DNA of 41,013 nt from a virus, in the UHGV virus genome UHGV-1836508; one strand, written 5' to 3'. The stretch's first letter is position 1, and the number at the start of each line of letters is the position of its first letter. The translations under genes and the position numbers were made by a program. Of the stretch, positions 1,250 to 40,432 are shown one piece after another. The notes under the pieces were generated by a model. That model worked only from the letters and a program-made list of their open reading frames with translations. It was not told the DNA's origin and made no database searches.

Positions 1250-3615
1250 TAGATTGACTCCCCCATCTGAGCATCAGTCAATGCCTTGTGCCATATTCTG
1301 AAATTCCTGATATGACCAAATAAATGGCGTAACCCGGCTGTAGTCTGGCCTCCAATACGGATAATTGCGGAGTTCTGAATATATGACCATGTGGTTTTTG
1401 TTTCGCTGGATATACGCCCGTTACTTACTGAGCACGTAGACTGATCTGACTTTACACGCATCCCCATAACCATTTTTTCAAGCGATGCGTTTTCGTTTAC
1501 CCGTCTGTTAGCCAAACCTATATCACAATAAGGAAATCCGTCGTAATCTGTTGAACGACCGAAGCCAAGAATAATAGCCGCTCCGGTTTGATGACCGCCG
1601 GTATCAAAAACACGCGGTGCTGCATTTGGCGTTTTATACCAGTTCTTATGTACCTCACAAAGAACTGTAAAAGGAAGATTATAAAGGTTATTCTTGATTG
1701 GGACTGTCACCATATCGCTTGCGCGAGTGCTTGCAGTTATATCAGTTACAATAAATGACGAAGCACTTGATCCACCTTCCACTTGTGGAGTTGCGATATC
1801 CAGATAGTCTCCGGATACTGTGCTTGAACCTTTTACAGGAGCGTACTGAACCATCGCACCAATCATGCTCTCAGTATCCAGTGCATTAATTGTAGCCTGG
1901 AAGAAAATCCAACCAGTAGCCTCATCTTTTACTGCCTTTGAAATAATACGATTTGCAGCACCACCAGTTAGTTCAATTAAAAGTGTTGATAAATTGAGGT
2001 AAGCATCTCCCAAAAAAGTGTAAGTAGAACCATCATGATGTTCAAATCTTAAACGACACCTTATATTTTCAACATCACTTCTGACACGGCATGAAATGGT
2101 CACATATTTTTCATCACCTGTGACATCAAATCCTTTACTGCCAGAAACCGTTACGATACTAATCGCACTTGTTTGACCAATAAGAGTATCTTTTACAGTA
2201 AATCTACCATAAGTAAAATTAAAAGAATCCGTGGATATTTCTGTGAGTTCCAGATTGCTTGACTTATTCCATTTAGATGGATTTGTTGAATTAAGCAGAA
2301 GATTAGTTCTTTGCCCCTCAATAAGCAGGCCATCACGTTCAAATCGTGGCTCGTCAATGGCAGCCTCTGTCAGCACACCAGATTTATTAATATAGGTTGC
2401 TTTCGATGCGCGTTTAAACTTTACAACCTTATCGCCAGGCATCGTTATTTCATCATCACCAATAACAATCTTTTTATATGACGGCGAAAAGCCCGTAATC
2501 ATATCCAGTGAATCGTTAAACGGTATCCACACATCGGGAAGCGGCTGCAAAACTTGTTTATACGGCTCCGCAGCCTGGTTTGCATACTCTCTGGCTGCGT
2601 CTTCACTCGCTTTTGCAGCCGTCTGGCTTGCAGCGGATGCTTTCGCCGAGTTAGCCGCCGCAGTCTCGCTCGCCTTTGCGTTGGTTTCACTGGTTTTTGC
2701 AGCTTTTTGACTGTTGGCTGATGCAGTGGCAGAAGCAGCCGCCGCACTTGCAGAACCAGCTGCGGCACTCTCGCTTTGGGCTGCTGCATCCTGACTGCTT
2801 TTCGCCGCAGTTTCGCTGGCTTTAGCATTCGTTTCGCTGGTCTTCGCTGCCGTCTGGCTGGACTTTGCGTTAGTTTCACTCGTCTTCGCTGCTTTCTGGC
2901 TATTAGCCGCCGCAGTTGCTGATCCAGCTGCTGAAGTCGCAGAACCGGCTGCCGCACTCTCGCTTTCAGCTGCTGCATCCTGACTGCTTTTTGCTGCGGT
3001 AGCGGAGTTGGCGGCAGCACTCTGACTCGATTTTGCAGCTGCCTCGCTATTTTTCGCATTAGTTTCGCTGGTCTTTGAAGCTGTCTCACTCGCTTTTGAG
3101 TTAGTTTCTGATTTTTTGGCCGCTGTTGCGCTCGCTGCCGCCTCTTTAGCTTTTTGTGCAGCGGTGTTAATTATGGGAGTATTTTCTTTATACCATTCTA
3201 GGTTCTCATTGTGCTCATTAACGATCTGCGTAAGGGATTTTACGGTTAATTCCGTGCCATCTTCACGCTCAATTGTTATTTCATCCACAGCAGTCAGCCA
3301 ACTACGCATCATTTTTGAATCGGCTGACATGCGAGACATAAGCGCAGTAAAACGAGCACTAAATTGGGTCAAATCACCTTCATAGGTCGTAATTATTCTG
3401 CACGGAACATTTGTTTGGGTGCTGCCACCGTAGGCTTCAACAAGAGTTAACGAAGTGTCACTCTCGATTGATTTTATTTCATATAACTTATTATCGGGGC
3501 CAATCAATATCATACCTGGAAGGACGCCGTTCGCCGTCACTCCCCATGCTGTGCCTGTTCCCACTACAGTTTTATTTCCTTTAGTGAGATTTATTGTACC
3601 TTCCCTGTACCACAT
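1249..3615 (-). CDS. side tail fibre protein (lambda Stf-like) with Ala/Ser/Thr-rich repeats
   Basis: 788 aa directly downstream of J. Central region is built of repeated KTSETNAK / AAKSSQ / SATAA units, very like the alanine-rich repeats of lambda Stf-type fibres. ATG at 3613-3615. Confidence 0.8.
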   Translation of the reverse strand: MWYREGTINLTKGNKTVVGTGTAWGVTANGVLPGMILIGPDNKLYEIKSIESDTSLTLVEAYGGSTQTNVPCRIITTYEGDLTQFSARFTALMSRMSADSKMMRSWLTAVDEITIEREDGTELTVKSLTQIVNEHNENLEWYKENTPIINTAAQKAKEAAASATAAKKSETNSKASETASKTSETNAKNSEAAAKSSQSAAANSATAAKSSQDAAAESESAAAGSATSAAGSATAAANSQKAAKTSETNAKSSQTAAKTSETNAKASETAAKSSQDAAAQSESAAAGSASAAAASATASANSQKAAKTSETNAKASETAAANSAKASAASQTAAKASEDAAREYANQAAEPYKQVLQPLPDVWIPFNDSLDMITGFSPSYKKIVIGDDEITMPGDKVVKFKRASKATYINKSGVLTEAAIDEPRFERDGLLIEGQRTNLLLNSTNPSKWNKSSNLELTEISTDSFNFTYGRFTVKDTLIGQTSAISIVTVSGSKGFDVTGDEKYVTISCRVRSDVENIRCRLRFEHHDGSTYTFLGDAYLNLSTLLIELTGGAANRIISKAVKDEATGWIFFQATINALDTESMIGAMVQYAPVKGSSTVSGDYLDIATPQVEGGSSASSFIVTDITASTRASDMVTVPIKNNLYNLPFTVLCEVHKNWYKTPNAAPRVFDTGGHQTGAAIILGFGRSTDYDGFPYCDIGLANRRVNENASLEKMVMGMRVKSDQSTCSVSNGRISSETKTTWSYIQNSAIIRIGGQTTAGLRHLFGHIRNFRIWHKALTDAQMGESI
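2560..3140. repeat. in-frame tandem coding repeats (Ala/Ser/Thr-rich) inside the side tail fibre gene
   Basis: Reiterated gc(a/c)gc / agcgaaac / ctggct units at DNA level give repeated SETNAK-AAKSSQ peptide units; this also generates spurious ORFs in other frames. Confidence 0.7.
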
Positions 3616-25463: not shown

Positions 25464-25507
25464 AAAACAACTTGTTTACTGCATCTGCTAACCAACTTGT
25501 TTTCTGG
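25464..25507 (-). promoter_or_regulatory. two copies of the shared palindromic leader element (AAACAAGTTGTTT type) upstream of the terminase genes
   Basis: Plus strand aaaacaacttgttta (25464-25478) and accaacttgttttctgg (25491-25507); same element as in the early-gene leaders. Confidence 0.5.
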
Positions 25508-27448: not shown

Positions 27449-28113
27449 GCAGCCATCTCCCCGGAAGAGATCTTCTCCGCATATGCCACAAATGCGTCTA
27501 CCCCGCTTTCTCCCGTCATTTCTTCCATATGGGCAAGCAAATCACCAACAACAATGGCAGAGCCAGCAGGGAGCGTTTTAAAGCCCAATACGTCGACAAC
27601 ACGTACTTCTTCCGCTGCAACTTCACGACTGATCTCGGTGTGTTCATCCTTCTGTCGTTTAGTTTCTTCGCCAAGATCGATAACTAGCGAGTCGGTGTCC
27701 ATTTCTTCTGTCATACTGCCAACGAGAACATTCAACTCACGCTCTTCAAAGCCGAAAACCTCAATATCGTCCAGAACAAGCGACTCAAGCTCTTTCTGTA
27801 GCTTAATTGCATCGTAATCAATGCTGGCAAGTCGGTTATCTTCAAGGCGCTTCGCACGAACCTCGTCATCACTCAGATCATCACGAACAATAACCGGTAC
27901 GCGCTCAAGTCCAGCAAAAATTGCAGCCTCACGGCGGCCGTGGCCAGTAATAATTACGTCGTTCTTATCGACCGTAATTGGCTGGTCAAATCCGCGCTTT
28001 TTAATGGCTGCGGCCAAATCTCTGATCTGCTGTTCATCATGCTTTTTGGCATTCATCTCATAGGGAATAAGATCTGCCGGGTCGCGATATACGATTTCAA
28101 ACTTTTTGGTCAT
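27445..28113 (-). CDS. ParB/Srx-fold (ParB N-terminal domain) protein, paralogue 2
   Basis: …VIITGHGRREAAIFAGLERVPVIV… matches the ParB arginine-rich motif; ATG at 28113 overlaps the upstream stop (ATGA). Confidence 0.75.
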   Translation of the reverse strand: MTKKFEIVYRDPADLIPYEMNAKKHDEQQIRDLAAAIKKRGFDQPITVDKNDVIITGHGRREAAIFAGLERVPVIVRDDLSDDEVRAKRLEDNRLASIDYDAIKLQKELESLVLDDIEVFGFEERELNVLVGSMTEEMDTDSLVIDLGEETKRQKDEHTEISREVAAEEVRVVDVLGFKTLPAGSAIVVGDLLAHMEEMTGESGVDAFVAYAEKISSGEMAA

Positions 28114-28811
28114 TACATACGCTCCTTGTAGTAGTCGACCAGCCACACCAGAGCCTCACCAGCGTTCTCCATTTCATTACCGGTGTTAATAGCCTGCTCT
28201 TTGATGATGTTTTTTATGGTTTCTGCAACACGATCTGACGCATCGAAAGTTACTTTGAAGCGCATGGTCTGATGTTCCGCACCCACACGTTCGGTTTTCT
28301 CTCGTTTGTCGGTATCGACAGGCTCATCACTACCACGAGACAACGCCTCCAGTGCTTCAAGGTCGATTGCCGCCTCTTTTGCTAAAACCATCGAGATTTC
28401 GTCGTCATACGGGGCGATTTCAGACAGTTGATAGTCAAGTTCTGACTGAATTTCTTCAATGAAGCGTTGCAATGCGATTTGGTCGTCTTCACCGTATCGC
28501 TCGTTGTCCACCAGTGACATCTGTTTAGCTACGACATCGCTAATTTTGCCCACAGAAAGCACCGGAACCGTTGAAATTCCTTGCTCAATAGCAGCACGCC
28601 AGCGATGTTCACCGCCGAGGATTTCAAAAAATCCATCTTCAAGTTCACGAGCCAAAATTGGCTTAAAAAAGCCCAATTTTTCGATAGAACCTTTCAGTTT
28701 TTCAAAATTCTGCGCACCAACCGAATTGGTGTTCCAGGTATTCGGGCGAAGGTTGGCAACATCAACCTGCAAAATCGTGATTTTTACATCCATTTTATTG
28801 CTACAATCCAC
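28113..28811 (-). CDS. ParB/Srx-fold (ParB N-terminal domain) protein, paralogue 1
   Basis: …EILGGEHRWRAAIEQGISTVPVL… is close to the canonical ParB GERRxRAA box. Start uncertain (GTG 28811 or ATG 28793), both with weak SD. Confidence 0.7.
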   Translation of the reverse strand: MDCSNKMDVKITILQVDVANLRPNTWNTNSVGAQNFEKLKGSIEKLGFFKPILARELEDGFFEILGGEHRWRAAIEQGISTVPVLSVGKISDVVAKQMSLVDNERYGEDDQIALQRFIEEIQSELDYQLSEIAPYDDEISMVLAKEAAIDLEALEALSRGSDEPVDTDKREKTERVGAEHQTMRFKVTFDASDRVAETIKNIIKEQAINTGNEMENAGEALVWLVDYYKERM

Positions 28812-32635: not shown

Positions 32636-33157
32636 ATGGTTAAAGACATCACCTACGGCATACCGGCTGAAGTCTGGCCGCGAGACTACGAACATGCTGA
32701 AAACATACTTATGTTCTGGCGGAAGAACAACATTCCTGTAAGAGTCACGCTTGAAGACGGTCAGGTGTTTTGCATGTACGTTCAGGGGACAATGCCTTCC
32801 CGCAATAAGCTAGATTTATGCCCGCTTCCATATGATAAAGAAAATCGTATAAGACTCCCACTTGAGCGCATTAGCACAATTGAATCAGGTGTAATCGATG
32901 GCATTGCTCGCGAGTTCAAAGGTAGGCTAACAATACATCCAGACTATGTTGACAATCAGCCATCACGCCGTGACTTTTTTGCGATATGTCGCAAGGCTTA
33001 TCAAAACGACCAATCTATAAGGGTCTACATGACAGACGGTCGTGAAATAGAAGGGGTGTCAAGAGGCGTTGATGCTTGCCAGGTCACTCTTAAATTAGAA
33101 GACGGCAGAAAAATACTTGTTTTCTTCGATTGGGTTGAACGAATCCTTCCATTTTAA
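32636..33157 (+). CDS. hypothetical protein with two tandem Rof/YaeO-like repeats (possible Rho modulator)
   Basis: Internal duplication …VRVTLEDGQVFCMYVQG…RIRLPLERISTIE / …QVTLKLEDGRKILVFFDWVERI resembling the LTLELKDGE…RLDKITSF pattern of Rof; TATAAT at 32602-32607 upstream. Confidence 0.35.
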   Translation: MVKDITYGIPAEVWPRDYEHAENILMFWRKNNIPVRVTLEDGQVFCMYVQGTMPSRNKLDLCPLPYDKENRIRLPLERISTIESGVIDGIAREFKGRLTIHPDYVDNQPSRRDFFAICRKAYQNDQSIRVYMTDGREIEGVSRGVDACQVTLKLEDGRKILVFFDWVERILPF

Positions 33158-34758: not shown

Positions 34759-34995
34759 AAAGCTATCTGGATGGCCCAGGGGCTGAAACCCCCACCAGCG
34801 ATACCCCAGCGCCGCTACGCAATTTCTGGCGCGATTCCGGGTTTCTCCCGCTCAGTTTTCTACATAAAGGCGACCCCCGCCGTTTCCCGAAAAAATCCTG
34901 GCCGTTTCCCGTCGGCTCATGAATACGTTCCTCGCCGTTTCTGAAAATTTCCCTGCGGCAGCTGGTGGCTATAGAGAAAGGGCCGTTTCTGGCCC
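34759..34995. repeat. iteron array 1: about 6-8 direct repeats of (G)CCGTTTCC(C)-type units
   Basis: gccgtttcccgaaaaaa (34878), gccgtttcccgtcgg (34901), cgccgtttctgaaaat (34933), tttccctgcgg (34950), gccgtttctggccc (34982) plus degenerate copies; non-coding. Confidence 0.75.
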
Positions 34996-35004
34996 TCTTC
35001 TCAG

Positions 35005-35487
35005 TTACACGCCATCAAGGATGTGGATGCGGTTGCTTGCGTATACATTCAGCATAAAGTTAGCGCAAAACAGTTTCCATGTATCAACGCCAGCGGTATA
35101 CGTAATGTTTTTGCATTTAATCGCATTGTTGGCGATCCGCATCCCCTGCGATACTGCTTCATCGTCGGAAAATTTGAACGACGATTGAGTTTTAATCCAG
35201 ACAGAAATCTGCGTAGCGAACTCAATCAGCTTGGACTGGCAGAATCGCCCGGAGCGCACCGGAAAGACGAACGTTCCGAATCCAGAATTTACCACATACG
35301 CTTTCTCAAATACCCGCGAGTAACGACGATTGCCAATGATGTCGCGTGCAATAATGCATTTTTCTTGTGCTGACAGTTCTACCGTCTCATTGTCGCGCCA
35401 TGCACCAAGTACTCGTTTTTCAATGTCAGAGAACGTTACAGCGATATTGCCATGTGCGGGTGCGTTTACAGTAGCGATAAAATTCAT
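35005..35487 (-). CDS. hypothetical 160-aa early-cassette protein A
   Basis: ATG with SD AAGGAAA; own promoter and shared leader element. Confidence 0.6.
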   Translation of the reverse strand: MNFIATVNAPAHGNIAVTFSDIEKRVLGAWRDNETVELSAQEKCIIARDIIGNRRYSRVFEKAYVVNSGFGTFVFPVRSGRFCQSKLIEFATQISVWIKTQSSFKFSDDEAVSQGMRIANNAIKCKNITYTAGVDTWKLFCANFMLNVYASNRIHILDGV

Positions 35488-35508
35488 GATTATTTCCTTA
35501 TCGTAAAT

Positions 35509-35562
35509 AACAAATTGTTTTCTTGTTGGTGTTAATTATCGTTGTACGAATAAGGCGTCAAA
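35509..35562 (-). promoter_or_regulatory. promoter (TTGACG - 15 bp - GATAAT) plus conserved leader element for gene A
   Basis: Minus strand reads TTGACGccttattcgtacaacGATAATtaACACCAACAAGAAAACAATTTGTT, then SD and ATG. Confidence 0.55.
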
Positions 35563-35662
35563 GTGGAAAGTTGCGGTAGCCGGACGAGAACAGGTGGGTT
35601 TGTCGGTTGCCTGGAGGTAAGAGGTTGGTGTTTTTAGCCTGCGGGAAACAGGATGGTCATTT

Positions 35663-35686
35663 AAGGCCACCAGCATTGGTGGCCTT
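35663..35686 (-). terminator. hairpin (terminator or processing site) after gene B; contains a Chi octamer
   Basis: AAGGCCACCA-gcat-TGGTGGCCTT; near-identical copy at 36134-36157. Confidence 0.45.
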
Positions 35687-35691
35687 AGTCT

Positions 35692-35973
35692 TTAGTGGAG
35701 CAGACCGATGTCGATGGTATCCCCTGAATCATCCACACGGATCATCAGCATGGCGAAGGCGTTTAGTGGATAGCTTGCGTGCCATTCAGGGAAGCGGTCA
35801 TCTCGCATGAAGTCGGCAATGTCGTAAACGCATCCCTCAAAGTGGAAGAATCGCGTGCTTACCTGCTCGTCATAATCCACATGATCCATTTCTTGCTGTT
35901 CTGTTTCCGGCAAGTCCAGCCATGATTCAAGGAATACATTTTGTGCTTTAGGGGTAATGGTGAAATCAGTCAT
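35692..35973 (-). CDS. small strongly acidic early-cassette protein B (93 aa; DNA-mimic-like composition)
   Basis: ATG at 35973 with SD GAGGA (the longer track ORF has no SD). About 22 Asp/Glu against about 5 Lys/Arg. Shares a D(I/A)ADFM(R/D) segment with gene F. Confidence 0.55.
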   Translation of the reverse strand: MTDFTITPKAQNVFLESWLDLPETEQQEMDHVDYDEQVSTRFFHFEGCVYDIADFMRDDRFPEWHASYPLNAFAMLMIRVDDSGDTIDIGLLH

Positions 35974-35992
35974 GAGCATATCCTCACTGCGT

Positions 35993-36024
35993 AAACATGT
36001 TGTTTTCTTGTTGGTGTAATTATC
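35993..36024 (-). promoter_or_regulatory. -10 GATAAT plus conserved leader element for gene B
   Basis: Minus strand GCGATAATtACACCAACAAGAAAACAACATGTTTAC. Confidence 0.5.
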
Positions 36025-36133
36025 GCAGTGTAGATAAGGCATAAAAGAAGTTAATACAGGCTGAATACACAAGAAAGGTTCTGGAAGTTGATAGCCAGGT
36101 TTCAAACTAACCTTCGGTTATTAAAAGTCATTT

Positions 36134-36157
36134 AAGACCACCAATGCTGGTGGCCTT
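36134..36157 (-). terminator. hairpin (terminator or processing site), inverted copy of the 35663 element; contains a Chi octamer
   Basis: AAGACCACCA-atgc-TGGTGGCCTT, followed on the minus strand by a U-rich tract. Confidence 0.45.
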
Positions 36158-36308
36158 AATAATTATCGCCCGATTACGCTAAGGATCTTTTCCTCAACTG
36201 ATTTGTTGTTGCGACTAAACTGCCTTGCGTATCTGATGACAGAAGAGGCGTTTTGCTTTCTGACCATCTCGGCTCTTTCCTTCAGGCGTTTCTTGAAATC
36301 GCCCATAT

Positions 36309-36683
36309 TTACCACCAGGCGCAGAAGGTCAGTCTGTTATTGTGAAAGTCGTGGTTCTTAATCAGATCTTCCACAAGCTCTTTCAACTCCCCCACATCAT
36401 GCCAGTAACCTTCATCGTACTCCTGACTGCCGAAGAAAAAACCTTCCCGGGTAGGCAAGTACTCTTCGCAATTACTTTCGTTTATGTGCATCAAATGAGC
36501 CTTCAGAAAACAAATGTCATTCATCGTTAATTCTAAAAGCTCACAATTTTCGACTTCACCTACGTTGCGCTCCATCCACCCAACGAGCGCATTGAACTTA
36601 CGGAAGTAAGCAACCCGCTTTCTGGATGCCTCGTTATTCAGATCGTTTTTAGGCTGTGTCTCGATATAGATATCAAGTCCCAT
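36309..36683 (-). CDS. hypothetical acidic early-cassette protein C (124 aa)
   Basis: ATG at 36683 with SD AAGGAA; track start 36725 is GTG without SD. Confidence 0.55.
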   Translation of the reverse strand: MGLDIYIETQPKNDLNNEASRKRVAYFRKFNALVGWMERNVGEVENCELLELTMNDICFLKAHLMHINESNCEEYLPTREGFFFGSQEYDEGYWHDVGELKELVEDLIKNHDFHNNRLTFCAWW

Positions 36684-36737
36684 GATGGTTTCCTTATTAA
36701 GTTGCTTCAGTGAAATCATTTTCACAAATCAGATAAG

Positions 36738-36760
36738 GCAGAAAACAAATTGTTATCGGG
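36738..36760 (-). promoter_or_regulatory. conserved leader/operator element upstream of gene C, in inverted orientation
   Basis: Plus strand gcagaaaacaaattgttatcggg. Confidence 0.4.
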
Positions 36761-36768
36761 CTTAATAA

Positions 36769-36791
36769 AATGGCGCGGTTTACGCGCCATT
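36769..36791 (-). terminator. intrinsic terminator after gene D
   Basis: AATGGCGCG-gttta-CGCGCCATT then TTATT on the minus strand. Confidence 0.65.
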
Positions 36792-36800
36792 TAAAGAGGA

Positions 36801-37196
36801 TTAAGCGAATACGCTTTCAGGGATTAAGGTGTCGGCAGGAATGCCAGAGGTAATGCGCAGGCCGTACTGACCAATCCAGGTAGTGTTGGTATTCAGGTTG
36901 GAGGCGAATACGGTGTTAACCATATTCATCATGGTTTCAAACACCTCTTCATCAACCTGGCGGAAGTAGTTCTCGATTTTCAGCAGCAGCGGGTCAGTTG
37001 CATCGAGAATGGACTGGTATTGAGTCGCGTACTCGCCGTCGGAGGCATCACCTTTACGCACGATCGTACTGGCCTGGACTTCGGCACCAGTTTCGGTGTT
37101 GTACGTAACAACGGTGATTTTTGCCACATTCTTACCTTCGGCGGTTTCAGAGGCATAGTAAACATCAACTGTCAGTTTTTCGCGTTTAACGGTCAT
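36801..37196 (-). CDS. hypothetical 131-aa early-cassette protein D
   Basis: ATG at 37196 with SD GGAGAG; own sigma70-like promoter. Confidence 0.55.
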   Translation of the reverse strand: MTVKREKLTVDVYYASETAEGKNVAKITVVTYNTETGAEVQASTIVRKGDASDGEYATQYQSILDATDPLLLKIENYFRQVDEEVFETMMNMVNTVFASNLNTNTTWIGQYGLRITSGIPADTLIPESVFA

Positions 37197-37228
37197 TTCA
37201 CTCTCCGTAGTGTTTTGGTTATTTTTAT

Positions 37229-37257
37229 ATTCTATGATCGTAGGTATGTACTTACAA
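37229..37257 (-). promoter_or_regulatory. sigma70-type promoter for gene D (TTGTAA - 17 bp - TAGAAT)
   Basis: Hexamers read on minus strand; -35 lies within a GTAAGTAC motif. Confidence 0.5.
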
Positions 37258-37266
37258 TACAAAAAA

Positions 37267-37289
37267 AGCCCCGTAAGGATGGCGGGGCT
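37267..37289 (-). terminator. intrinsic terminator after gene E
   Basis: Minus strand AGCCCCGCC-atccttac-GGGGCT followed by TTTTTTT. Confidence 0.8.
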
Positions 37290-37323
37290 GTCGTACTGTC
37301 GACTAATTACCACTTGCACATTA

Positions 37324-37635
37324 TCAGGCTATTGCCATCACTGATGCTCTCTGAATTTCTTGCTGGGCCACGCGGTTAACTTCCATCAAAGCCAGTTCGA
37401 GCTGATGTTCCGGCCACATTCTTTGAAATGCCATCCAGCCTTTTCCACGCTGGCGACGAACATTCATTACATAACGAGTAAAGGTGTTTTTATCGAAAGA
37501 CACCGCTGTTTCACGGAACAGACGAATAGAGGTTCCATTGGCAACGATGTCCAGCAAAGTTAATTGAGCAACCAGCGCAGGCTTCTCTTTTCTCTTCTGG
37601 TCTTTGTCCAGACCAAGAACCAATGATTTTTTCAT
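37324..37635 (-). CDS. small basic early-cassette protein E (103 aa; possible nucleic-acid-binding regulator)
   Basis: ATG at 37635 with SD GGAG; Lys/Arg-rich. Confidence 0.5.
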   Translation of the reverse strand: MKKSLVLGLDKDQKRKEKPALVAQLTLLDIVANGTSIRLFRETAVSFDKNTFTRYVMNVRRQRGKGWMAFQRMWPEHQLELALMEVNRVAQQEIQRASVMAIA

Positions 37636-37646
37636 CACAACTCCGT

Positions 37647-37681
37647 AAACAACTTGTTTTCTCAATGGCGTAAATAATACC
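37647..37681 (-). promoter_or_regulatory. -10-like TATTAT plus conserved leader element for gene E
   Basis: Minus strand GGTATTATttacgccattGAGAAAACAAGTTGTTTAC. Confidence 0.45.
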
Positions 37682-37789
37682 AGTAAGAAAACGGCTACAA
37701 AGCATATTGATCAGGCGCATGAGCGATATGCAGGTTCTTCCCTGCGGCTACAGATTAAGTTAAGCCAGCATTGCTGGCTTTGGTTGGGA

Positions 37790-38119
37790 TTACGCGATTA
37801 CCTCAAGAAACTCCTGAACGTCCCAATGCTGGACGAGGTGAAGATAGACCTTAGAAATCACGTCATTTTCGCTATCGCATGTGAAGTAGTACTTCTGGCT
37901 GCGGTTGTATGTGTCCACACAAAATTCGCTCATATCCATAAAGTCAGCATCTTCACCCATGTCGCAAATCATCAAAGCAGGTGCGTCATCACGAGTCATC
38001 AGCTCAAGCACCCACCGCGAATTGATCAGAGTGGAAGACCAACCTTCTAACTCATAAAACTGATCAAACTCTTTTTGAGTTAATTTCTTGATTTGGTTGA
38101 TGTCGATATTTGCAAACAT
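37790..38119 (-). CDS. small strongly acidic early-cassette protein F (109 aa; paralogue-like to B)
   Basis: ATG at 38119 with SD AAGGA; net charge about -15; EDADFMDMSEF segment resembles gene B. Confidence 0.55.
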   Translation of the reverse strand: MFANIDINQIKKLTQKEFDQFYELEGWSSTLINSRWVLELMTRDDAPALMICDMGEDADFMDMSEFCVDTYNRSQKYYFTCDSENDVISKVYLHLVQHWDVQEFLEVIA

Positions 38120-38132
38120 AAAGCAATCCTTA

Positions 38133-38165
38133 AACAACATGTTTTCTTGATGGTGTTATTATCGC
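38133..38165 (-). promoter_or_regulatory. -10 GATAAT plus conserved leader element for gene F
   Basis: Minus strand GCGATAATAACACCATCAAGAAAACATGTTGTTTAAGG. Confidence 0.5.
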
Positions 38166-38479
38166 AATAACGCACAAGCGAAAAAGGATTTTATTCCGGT
38201 GAATGTGGTTTTGGCAGTGAGTTTTCAGGTTCAGTACCGAGAACACTTTTTACATTATTCTGATTTAGTGGCCGAAGGTGGCTGGTGGGCAGAATAATCC
38301 TCTCCCCGAAAACCTACTGAAATCGATTGTGACCCGTTGGCTGTCTGGCACAATTACGCTGTAGCTGGGCATTCAGAGGGAATCCAGCGGTAAGTAAGTT
38401 CGCCTGCACGTGAGCGTCTCTCTTCTTCCCGCACATTACAGGTGGGTAGCCGCAACTCTCCCTCTCGCTATACCGGTAC

Positions 38480-38662
38480 GCCGCCGTTCCTGAACCGGCA
38501 TCGAGCCTTTTCCCGAAATCCACACAGGCAACTCGACCGTTTCCCTGAAAATCCCCAGCCGTTCCCCGAAGGCAATCCAGCCGTTTCTGTAGCGGGATGC
38601 AGCCTTTTCCCTGCGGCGACGCTCCCGTTCCTGAAAATGGACATAGCCTTTTCCCTGGATGG
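38480..38662. repeat. iteron array 2: eight direct repeats of (A)GCCGTTTCCCTGAAAA-type units at 20-23 bp spacing
   Basis: Copies start at about 38484, 38504, 38537, 38557, 38578, 38601, 38624 and 38645; the region has only low-complexity ORFs. Confidence 0.8.
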
Positions 38663-38699
38663 CCCGAAGGCTGACCGAAGGGGTGGAAATAGGCGTTAC

Positions 38700-39690
38700 G
38701 GGGGACGAAAATTATGGCTTGAATTTATACGAAGAAAGTAGCGATACCCCTCCTTCCCTTCCCACTTATACCTCCCACGAATTTTCTCTCTTATGTGGGC
38801 ATAAACCTTCCCTCTGATAACGCTCTATACGGCGAGTATTCCTTTGGGTGAAATGGGTGGTTTGTTCTTTCTACCGGCATATGTGGTTTCGTTCTTCTTG
38901 AGGTGGTTCTTCTCTGTGTTTTCGTCTGGGTTGTTCTCGTCGTTTTGGTGACTGTTCTTCTCCGTGTATGGAGTAATGGCAGGTGGGCGATTGCTTTCGT
39001 TATTGTGTTTGAGTTGTTTGTCTGGAGTGCGTGAAGGGCTTTTGTAGTTATTCGTGTATTGGGTAATGGCGTTTCCCGTGATTGTTATGTTTCGTGTCTT
39101 TTGGGATTGAGAGAAACCTTGCGGTTACAGGCTTCGTTGGGGTTTCAGTGATTCTGGTGTTTCTTCGCTGTTTGGGTAATGGCGTGTCGTGGGTATCGCG
39201 CGTATGGAAGTTTCGAATTGCCTGTGAAAGTTAGGTTGGTTGTCCGGTAGCCTGGGAAGAAGAGGTGGGTCTTTTCGGTAGCCTGCCATAAAGAGGTTGG
39301 TTGTTTTTGGTAATGGCATATGTGTTATTTAGTTGTTTTGTTATACCTGAAAATAAGTTGTTTATATGGTTGTGTAACGCAACGGGAGCGATTTTGAGCG
39401 TGTGTTTTTGTTGGTAGTGTGTTGAGTCGTCTGTGGTGAAATTTGGACGCTGTGGCGCTATCTGCTGCGTGGGATTACGGGTATAAGAAGTGATGTGTGA
39501 AAACGTCAATTTTTTAGACCAAATCGGGTGAAAGCGTTGACATTTCGTTGATCTGTTGTTCAGTTGTTTTCTTATTGGTATAAACAACTATAACCTATTG
39601 ATATTTAAGGATGTGATTGCAGGTATAGAATGGGGGTAGTGGCGATCAACGGATTCTTATAGAAAAGAATCAAATTGTGACCGCCATTAT
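38700..39690. other. ~1-kb GT-rich (plus strand) non-coding tract with dispersed GGTAATGGC repeats
   Basis: No plus-strand ORF of 60 aa or more; minus-strand ORFs are low-complexity with TTG start; GGTAATGGC-like motif at about 38965, 39063, 39175 and 39309. Confidence 0.6.
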
Positions 39691-39697
39691 CAATGTT

Positions 39698-40432
39698 TTA
39701 CTTAGTTTTGTTTAGCAGAGAGAGAATTTCATCACTAATTTCACTCGCCTGTTTGATAGCCAATGCAGTTACCTCTTCTATGGTTGGTGACTGTTGATGC
39801 TCATGTTTGGTTTCAGTTATGACAATGTGTTCTTCACCTGAATTTGCGCATAGTGCCGCATTGACTATAAGGTTTGAGTAAGAATTTAGCAGAGCACTGT
39901 TGATAAACGCTTTCACGGTATTACTGTCTGCACCAAATACATCTTTTCTGACCGCTTCAGCCTCACAGCGAACCCCTGCAGCAACATCGTGAAGAACATG
40001 TATGGCCTTGGGGCTTGTTTGTTCACAGTACTCAATCATTATTGTCGAATTGTTCTGTTCAACAAATGATCTGATGCCTGACGATTCACCCATAGCATCG
40101 AAGGCAGCGTGACCCGCACTAGTAGAGATATCTTCATAGAGTTCTTCATCGCTATCTTTTTCTTCAGGTGTCGAGGTGTCTTCATCGTCGTAATAGATAT
40201 TGCCTTTAATCAGTGTTTTGGACACTTGATATAAACAATAAGAGACAAGATTTAAGCATTGGATTTTAGCTGTATTGTCCTTTGTCGCCTCGCTCTTCAG
40301 TTCTTTCGCTTCTTCAGTAAGGCTGTTGATAAGACTTTGTATTTTTTCCAACGCGTTAGGTGCACACTCAGCGTTGTCCATAAAGAATTTATAACCAGTC
40401 CCAGGGATTTCTAAACTTTTCAACTTTTTCAT
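39698..40432 (-). CDS. hypothetical 244-aa protein
   Basis: ATG start with SD-like AGGAT upstream; acidic central region; no motif recognised. Confidence 0.55.
   Translation of the reverse strand: MKKLKSLEIPGTGYKFFMDNAECAPNALEKIQSLINSLTEEAKELKSEATKDNTAKIQCLNLVSYCLYQVSKTLIKGNIYYDDEDTSTPEEKDSDEELYEDISTSAGHAAFDAMGESSGIRSFVEQNNSTIMIEYCEQTSPKAIHVLHDVAAGVRCEAEAVRKDVFGADSNTVKAFINSALLNSYSNLIVNAALCANSGEEHIVITETKHEHQQSPTIEEVTALAIKQASEISDEILSLLNKTK

Follow-up and report, generated by a model that had tools for sequence, protein, structure and literature searches.

The virus genome UHGV-1836508, a stretch of 41,013 nucleotides referred to here as the window, carries two arrays of a 31-bp bipartite repeat. 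Each array is composed of three tandem units on the same strand, at positions 35574-35661 (site 1) and 39215-39306 (site 2), one unit of each array being more degenerate than the other two. We favor, at a probability of about 45%, the interpretation that the arrays are phased binding sites for one sequence-specific DNA-binding protein that acts on transcription or on DNA architecture. This interpretation is based on the two conserved boxes of the unit, the fixed length and free sequence of the spacer between them, the period of three helical turns, the single orientation of the units, and their restriction to two loci in 108 kb and to one family of replicons. The motif is an undescribed example of a familiar class, that of phased direct-repeat binding arrays.

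The region 35000-40000 of the window is ~98% identical to the plasmid pLF82 of Escherichia coli LF82, which is phage Cyrano and has a complete replicon of 108,379 bp. The kin of the window include Salmonella phage SSU5, plasmid pHCM2 of Salmonella Typhi, plasmid pMT1 of Yersinia pestis, and several hundred non-mobilizable IncFIB plasmids from Escherichia, Klebsiella, Enterobacter, Salmonella, Citrobacter, Cronobacter, and Yersinia. Because of the identity to pLF82 and the kinship to SSU5, pHCM2, and the IncFIB plasmids, the window is assigned by sequence to an SSU5-type phage-plasmid. The searchable literature on SSU5, pHCM2, pMT1, and Cyrano describes neither the motif nor the non-coding tract that surrounds site 2. 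The literature on SSU5-type elements within reach treats the plasmid replicon, and not the lytic origin, the regulatory circuitry, or cis-elements.

Anatomy and conservation of the repeat arrays

A sequence-only reading of the window had proposed a single element of about 65 bp that lies upstream of a promoter and recurs, with roughly three quarters of its positions identical, inside a GT-rich tract. The two quoted sequences are present, the first starting at 35574 instead of 35573 and the second at 39245 as proposed. Global alignment of positions 35574-35637 with 39245-39310 gives 51 identical columns out of 67 (76%), in agreement with the proposed identity. The alignment has a score of 34, compared with -4.9 ± 4.5 (maximum 11, z = 8.6) for 3000 dinucleotide-preserving shuffles of the second copy. 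The first copy scores at most 8 (mean -7.7) against all 66-nt windows of the GT-rich tract outside the site. Local GT-rich composition, which the same reading had named as the explanation that would undo its claim, is therefore ruled out as the cause of the likeness. In a comparison of the first copy with the whole 41-kb window on both strands, the best off-diagonal match is at 39244. The shared sequence is, however, not a single 65-bp element but a 31-bp bipartite repeat with three copies at each site.

The unit, read on the plus strand, is formed by box A (CGGTAGCCTG), six free nucleotides, box B (AGAGGTKGGT), and a T-rich linker, and has a period of 30-31 bp. A repeat search recovered four in-register copies, grouped in families D3 and D5, with spacings of 30/28 and 31 bp. 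When the degenerate units are included, each site contains three direct repeats on one strand with periods of 28-31 bp, which correspond to about three helical turns. At site 1, unit 1 (35574-35603) reads CGGTAGCCGG-ACGAGA-ACAGGTGGGT-TTGT, unit 2 (35604-35633) reads CGGTTGCCTG-GAGGTA-AGAGGTTGGT-GTTT, and the degenerate unit 3 (35632-35661), which adjoins a hairpin, reads TTTTAGCCTG-CGGGAA-ACAGGATGGT-CATT. Unit 1 is canonical in the E. coli lineage and has a more degenerate version in other lineages. The orthologue of unit 2, CGGTAGCCTGGCGGTAAGAGGTGGGT, is found in SSU5, pHCM2, Klebsiella, Cronobacter, and pMT1. At site 2, unit 1 (39215-39244) has a weak box A and reads GAATTGCCTG-TGAAAG-TTAGGTTGGT-TGTC, with relatives carrying CGATTGCCTGGGAAGATTAGGTGGGT at this position. 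It is followed by unit 2 (39245-39275; CGGTAGCCTG-GGAAGA-AGAGGTGGGT-CTTTT) and unit 3 (39276-39306; CGGTAGCCTG-CCATAA-AGAGGTTGGT-TGTTT). All six units are on the plus strand. The composite motif has a specificity of roughly 30 bits or more.

In the 108,379-bp replicon of pLF82, the unit is confined to the two sites and to one strand, apart from one loose match inside a metG-like gene that looks like chance. Both arrays are kept, in one orientation, in Escherichia, Salmonella, Klebsiella, Enterobacter, Cronobacter, Kluyvera, and Buttiauxella. Plasmid pMT1 of Yersinia retains site 1 and lacks site 2, owing to a deletion of the tract region. A scan with the composite motif, in which each of 185,579 species was represented by one genome, identified SSU5-type replicons of Kluyvera, Buttiauxella, and Yersinia; beyond the SSU5-type replicons of Enterobacterales there were four isolated single matches in unrelated genomes, which we take as chance. 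A permissive pattern scan of viral contigs returned mostly chance matches and was uninformative.

To sample the relatives of the window, 77 viral contigs were retrieved through the 160-residue protein encoded next to site 1. The two sites have the same order and orientation across lineages, and none of the 77 contigs contains a copy of the unit on the opposite strand. Strong units at site 1 number one in 36 contigs, two in 38, and three in 3. Site 2 has two units in 39 contigs, three in 23, and one in 2, and 13 contigs have none within range. The copy number thus varies by whole units. The distance between the sites ranges from 1411 to 4522 bp, with a median of 3223 bp.

The conservation of the arrays is concentrated in the two boxes. 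When the tract was aligned across 47 non-redundant relatives without regard to the motif, box A was conserved at 95%, box B at 93%, the linkers at 82%, and the spacers at 65%, against 75% for the tract overall. In an alignment of eight genomes, the invariant columns fall on GTAGCCTG and AGAGGT-GGT, and the spacers vary (GGAAGA versus GGGCAA, and CCATAA versus ACAGGA). Orthologous units mostly retain their own spacer (ACAGGA in five of the eight genomes), whereas paralogous units differ. Likewise, the four good units of the window are 89% identical at the 20 box positions and 42% identical at the 10 other positions. Since the boxes are conserved while the spacers are free, and since spacers follow orthology, the arrays are old and have been kept alike by selection on two recognition boxes, and not by recent duplication or homogenization.

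The sequence-only reading had offered two explanations for the repeated element, a duplicated upstream regulatory module and a recombination footprint. The former is retained in so far as a cis-acting module is repeated and one of its copies has an upstream-regulatory position; a recent duplication is not supported. The footprint explanation falls with the age of the arrays and the selection on their boxes. Leftover homology does not account for intragenomic units that are 89% alike in the boxes and ~42% alike at unconstrained positions, and both arrays are kept, with order and orientation unchanged, in relatives where the neighboring 160-residue protein has fallen to ~67% identity. An apparent recombination between the arrays in large Klebsiella plasmids, in which homology starts at 39245, turned out to be a truncation of the tract by an insertion sequence further to the left.

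The units contain no conserved match to DnaA, IHF, Fis, KOPS, or Chi motifs, and a check by eye found no conserved sigma-54 or CpxR pattern. There was no match to Rfam at E ≤ 1. Consensus folds of the arrays reach only about -1 to -8 kcal/mol over 100-230 nt and show no covariation on either strand. A protein-coding function was rejected, because the open reading frame (ORF) CYRAN_103 over site 2 is broken by indels of 1, 8, and 1 nt, and an ORF starting at 39312 changes frame in Klebsiella.

Genomic setting of the two sites

Site 1 is flanked by a G+C-rich hairpin (35661-35688) on one side and, on the other, by the -35 hexamer TTGACG (35556-35561, minus strand) of the gene at 35005-35487, as the sequence-only reading had placed its first copy. 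Read along the minus strand, the hairpin of the gene at 35692-35973 is followed by units 3, 2, and 1, a gap of 12 bp, and the -35 and -10 hexamers. Beyond them lie the leader box ACACCAACAAGAAAACAAnTTGTT, which includes the palindrome AAACAAnTTGTTT, and then the Shine-Dalgarno sequence and start codon (ATG) of the 160-residue protein gene. The hairpin lies downstream of the 35692-35973 gene, forms the right bound of site 1, and holds a Chi complement. An A+T-rich stretch of 86 bp (35488-35573, 31% G+C) adjoins the site on the left. The promoter of the 160-residue protein gene, predicted from sequence and conservation (35535-35561, minus strand), consists of the -35 hexamer TTGACG (35561-35556) and the -10 hexamer GATAAT (35540-35535). 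The -10 hexamer is invariant, the -35 hexamer and the 15-16-nt spacing are sub-optimal, and other lineages have TTGGAC as the -35 hexamer. The array spans positions -48 to about -137 relative to this promoter and ends 12 bp from the -35 hexamer. Putative binding sites at about -40 to -140 from an imperfect core promoter, the arrangement of an upstream activator, are present at site 1 only.

The gene of the conserved 160-residue protein (35005-35487, minus strand; phrog_1641, CYRAN_111) reads away from site 1 and has homologues in the SSU5-type family only. The protein has no Pfam domain, and its AlphaFold2 model, with a predicted local distance difference test (pLDDT) score of 85.5, has no fold match in the PDB (best E = 0.64); on these grounds, the idea that it is an autoregulating DNA-binding protein is unsupported. 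In phage SSU5, the DNA to the right of the canonical unit gives way to a promoter-like TTCACA / TATACT pair that points rightward, begins ~20 bp past the unit, and is followed by a Shine-Dalgarno sequence and an ATG; the SSU5 array sits between predicted divergent promoters. This replacement of the hairpin (SSU5 segment coordinates 3160-3495) is a lineage-specific insertion exactly on the array border. The 90-residue ORF at the SSU5 site, annotated as 'repressor-like', matches HTH_60 with E = 0.003, below the Pfam cut-off. The helix-turn-helix-like gene SSU5_116 beside site 1 was set aside, as it is lineage-specific and its Pfam match is sub-threshold.

Because homology between lineages ends within or just past unit 3, site 1 is the left border of a variable block. 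The interval between the arrays (35661-39215) is hyperplastic: across 64 related contigs its length varies from 1.4 to 4.5 kb and its small-gene content differs. Each gene in the interval has its own promoter box and hairpin. A leader box ([GATAAT]-TAACACCAACAAGAAAACAAnTTGTTT) that includes the palindrome AAACAAnTTGTTT is located upstream of every small minus-strand gene. It is also present in the non-coding tract and, in two copies, just upstream of terS. Its positions are 35508-35540, 35993-36025, 36743-36758, 37647-37692, 38132-38165, 39351-39363, 39565-39581, and 25465-25502. The operator-like palindrome in the leader of the 160-residue protein gene (35508-35520) is common to the small-gene cassettes, the terS upstream region, and the tract (39351-39363). 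The leader box looks like a common operator or leader through which a single regulator would govern cassettes and structural operon alike. There are exact Chi sequences (GCTGGTGG) within the G+C-rich hairpins between cassettes, at 36144-36151 (plus strand) and 35668-35675 (complement), and at the left edge of the tract, at 38281-38288 (plus strand); they could stimulate RecBCD-dependent shuffling of the cassettes. In T4-type phages, mobile regulatory cassettes built of promoter plus stem-loop (PeSL) repeats occur in hyperplastic regions. The small ORFs between the arrays, with their repeated promoter or leader box and hairpin and their strong variability among relatives, resemble PeSL cassettes. 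The resemblance concerns the cassettes, whereas the 31-bp units are confined to the two borders and contain neither a promoter nor a stem-loop.

Site 2 is embedded in a conserved non-coding tract of ~1.5 kb (38141-39697), in which no RefSeq gene is listed in any relative examined. The tract is conserved in 838 PLSDB plasmids and 12 phage records and is the strongest strand-composition anomaly of the replicon. From left to right, it is composed of AGCCKTTYCY repeats, a CT-rich block, a GT-rich part (38820-39310, 73% G+T, with (G)GTAATGGC repeats), site 2, an AT-rich segment with a palindrome, and TTGAC-type hexamers. The AGCCKTTYCY repeats at 38482-38655 have start-to-start distances of 22, 53, 22, 22, and 44 bp, are iteron-like, and are kept in relatives. 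Further copies are located at 34878, 34933, and 37437, and all copies are on the plus strand. A third repeat family (38954-39317) has the form (GTTCTTCTCCGTGTATGG)(G/A)GTAATGGC, with four copies in the window and six in relatives. Its last copy immediately follows site 2, and the motif of the family resembles box A with an insertion (GGTA-AT-GGC versus GGTA-GCC).

The A+T-rich segment to the right of site 2 (39307-39380; 74 bp, 30% G+C) contains GGTAATGGC at 39309-39317 and the palindrome at 39351-39363. It is followed by conserved TTGAC-type hexamers at 39481-39542 and a further leader-box copy. An uncertain promoter-like pair, TTGACG-17 nt-TTATAC (39481-39509, minus strand), points leftwards into the tract. 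Its hexamers are conserved and its spacer is variable; the -10 hexamer lacks the canonical A2 and T6, and a consensus scan does not report the pair. At the position equivalent to that of the site 1 promoter there is no conserved canonical promoter. The TATACC-type hexamer nearest to site 2 lacks conservation, and lineages differ by ~22 bp in its distance from the site. Site 2 is therefore not simply the upstream element of a promoter of the same kind, as no equivalent conserved pair of -35 and -10 hexamers follows it.

The sequence-only reading had found no ORF adjacent to the second copy, and no credible one exists at site 2. CYRAN_103 (39231-39587, minus strand) can very probably be dismissed as a gene, because it has indels of 1, 8, and 1 nt relative to seven relatives, is not annotated by RefSeq in the relatives examined, and has a floor transcript level. 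For LF82 lysogens, most of the listed conditions show no transcript of the site 2 ORF above the detection floor, and the gene of the 160-residue protein is expressed (PMC9928086 supplementary table). This contrast fits an element that functions at the DNA level. A small hydrophobic ORF from the ATG of GGTAATGGC (39312) was rejected since its frame is not conserved and shifts in Klebsiella. A rightward 80-residue protein gene that would feed the tract was rejected as well, as it belongs to the SSU5/pHCM2 sub-lineage only.

Candidate functions of the arrays

We infer protein binding, and with it the identity of the protein, its activating or repressing effect, and any looping, from the anatomy, distribution, and conservation of the units. 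The protein is most probably encoded by the phage-plasmid itself, as the composite motif is restricted to the SSU5-type family. The motif carries far more information than is required to specify a site in a genome of such a size, in keeping with a dedicated protein that the element encodes. At site 1, the array would serve as an upstream activator or an architectural module for the promoter of the 160-residue protein gene, with its good -10 hexamer and poor -35 hexamer and spacing. Site 2 would place the same protein beside the A+T-rich, operator-bearing segment of the non-coding control tract. Since the arrays flank the cassette block at 1.4-4.5 kb, protein bound to both could bridge them, in the manner of looping between two operator clusters. 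In phage lambda, the paired tripartite operator clusters OL and OR cooperate by looping. The arrays share with them the organization into two clusters of three sites a few kb apart, which flank a regulatory or accessory region and of which one is at a promoter. They differ from OL and OR in that the units are asymmetric direct repeats instead of palindromes, are positioned upstream of the -35 hexamer and not over the promoter, and are separated by 1.4-4.5 kb. The rrnB P1 promoter has three phased Fis sites upstream, and site 1 resembles it by three sites ~30 bp apart in front of a promoter with an imperfect core. However, the array motif is far more specific than and unlike that of Fis, and the second array has no matching promoter.

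Several observations speak against a dedicated activator of this kind. The neighboring 160-residue protein has neither a Pfam domain nor a structural relative and thus bears no mark of a DNA-binding protein. The boxes are near-invariant among lineages in which proteins have fallen to 50-70% identity, a pattern that a conserved host factor would suit as well. The distance from the array to the -35 hexamer differs by lineage, and outside E. coli the proximal unit is a degenerate one, which indicates that a strict activator geometry is not conserved. The units of the two sites face opposite ways relative to the nearest promoter-like or A+T-rich segment, and no conserved canonical promoter lies beside site 2.

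The main and most serious rival, which we consider unlikely, is that the units are origin-type iterons bound by a phage initiator. Site 2 and its A+T-rich neighbor would then form a lytic or second origin, and site 1 would be another origin-like site or a control site. Helically phased direct repeats of ~20-30 bp, organized in two clusters with A+T-rich neighbors and with one cluster adjacent to a promoter, are shared by the arrays with P1 incC/incA, the lambda origin, and SPP1 oriL/oriR. [quoted passage not shown] The segments of 74-86 bp and 30-31% G+C that adjoin the phased repeats at both sites would be in line with this organization; they also hold promoter and operator motifs. An origin would agree with the two additional repeat families of the tract, the 22-bp-phased AGCCKTTYCY and GTAATGGC, with the extreme strand composition of the tract, and with the loss of site 2 from pMT1, which has a large deletion of the region. 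The phage-plasmid encodes its own DnaE, DnaB-like helicase, ligase, and UvsW-like helicase, a phage replication gene set for which the literature within reach describes no lytic origin. However, no initiator gene is adjacent to the arrays, and the bipartite unit with its free 6-nt spacer differs from the known iterons. Conserved DnaA boxes and GATC clusters are lacking, the tract having one-mismatch DnaA-box matches and two GATC sequences where the RepA origin has several of each. The cumulative skew has no origin-type switch at the tract, and site 1 has an ordinary promoter-upstream position next to a gene expressed in lysogens. The plasmid origin of the replicon is elsewhere and has an unrelated sequence: it flanks repA, ~33 kb from the arrays, and is composed of RepA, 21-bp ATCCACTATAGAGAG iterons, DnaA boxes, and GATC clusters. 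RepA iterons of the IncFIB or P1 type were accordingly rejected as the identity of the units, since the 21-bp repeats do not resemble the unit and differ in location. A plasmid centromere of the parS or parC type was also rejected, since the arrays have no partition genes next to them; the two genes with a ParB_N domain lie beside the terminase region, 7-8 kb from site 1.

A signal coupled to transcription is doubtful. Box A would act as an ops-like element for RfaH on a rightward transcript, or the C-rich leftward RNA, with CACCUCU as an anti-Shine-Dalgarno or boxA-like sequence, would take part in controlling the CA-rich tract RNA through Rho or antitermination. Rho prefers C-rich, G-poor RNA, which the leftward tract RNA would be, and the near-invariance of the boxes across hosts would suit a host factor. 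Box A, CGGTAGCCTG, shares 9 of 10 bases with positions 3-12 of ops (GGCGGTAGCGTG), C3-G8 and T11-G12 among them, and occurs, as ops/JUMPstart elements do, in horizontally mobile DNA of Enterobacterales. The bases C3-G8 and T11-G12 of ops are needed for RfaH recruitment and pausing, and A7T abolishes the action of RfaH (PMC5995543). The 9 of 10 matches are those of site 2 units 2 and 3, and G1 and G2 are absent. The good site 1 units of the window carry the disabling substitutions T11G (unit 1) and A7T (unit 2). In contrast to ops, the units are tandem and have a conserved second box. The ops-like strand is antisense to all neighboring genes, and neither site has a conserved rightward promoter to feed it. 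Site 1 is outside the transcribed leader of the gene that follows it, lysogens show only floor-level transcript for the ORF over site 2, and RNA structure and covariation are lacking. As many known motifs were compared with the unit, one coincidence of 8-10 nt is unsurprising. A packaging function, with the small terminase binding either the arrays or the tract that surrounds site 2 as a pac region, is improbable. The region is conserved, repeat-rich, non-coding, and probably bent, and the large terminase belongs to the Terminase_6N type, commonly associated with headful (pac) packaging. However, terS and terL are ~13 kb from the tract, and pac sites are usually in or next to terS; site 1 would be left unexplained, and the virome coverage of Cyrano is no higher than that of plasmid contamination. 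The terminase type also led us to reject a lambda-type cos site, and because of it the resemblance of 38886-38902 (GGTTTCGTTCTTCTT) to lambda cosB R3 (GCGTTTCCGTTCTTCTT) is presumably a coincidence. It is hardly credible that the arrays are a neutral relic, a functionless footprint of duplication or recombination. They do flank the most recombinogenic, mosaic segment, with homology breaking within or next to site 1 unit 3, but their position and orientation are kept in at least eight genera, and a relic would decay uniformly instead of retaining its boxes and freeing its spacers.

We further speculate, as a quite unlikely extension of the binding-site interpretation, that the arrays are paired anchors of a dedicated phage-plasmid protein that would tie together the ends of the cassette block. 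With one anchor in a composite non-coding region that would serve as lytic origin or lifestyle switch, this arrangement would couple the expression of accessory genes to the choice between the plasmid and lytic states.

Implications for SSU5-type phage-plasmids

Along the window, tail, head, and terminase genes are followed by ParB_N-domain and UvsW-like genes, then by the small minus-strand genes and the long non-coding tract. The gene at 32636-33157 (plus strand) encodes a 173-residue protein with a full-length match to FljA, the phase-1 flagellin repressor (PF03614, E = 1e-80), and a faint Hfq-like match. FljA targets the leader of fliC mRNA, and the match suggests that the 173-residue protein is a silencer of host flagellin or an RNA-binding regulator of the shared leaders. 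Outside the window, the region upstream of repA in pLF82 looks duplicated, with two blocks ~370 bp apart, each containing a DnaA box, GATC-rich decamers, and 21-bp iterons (segment coordinates 27750-28379 and 1087-1570). More iterons, in both orientations, are located downstream of repA.

The analysis by itself demonstrates no new mechanism or principle. It flags and dissects a conserved non-coding control region of ~1.5 kb and defines the borders of a segment in which accessory genes are swapped. SSU5-type phage-plasmids, a family to which S. Typhi pHCM2 and relatives of Y. pestis pMT1 belong, are common in clinical Enterobacterales but have been little studied. For these elements, the 31-bp motif provides a specific bait with which its putative binding protein may be fished out.

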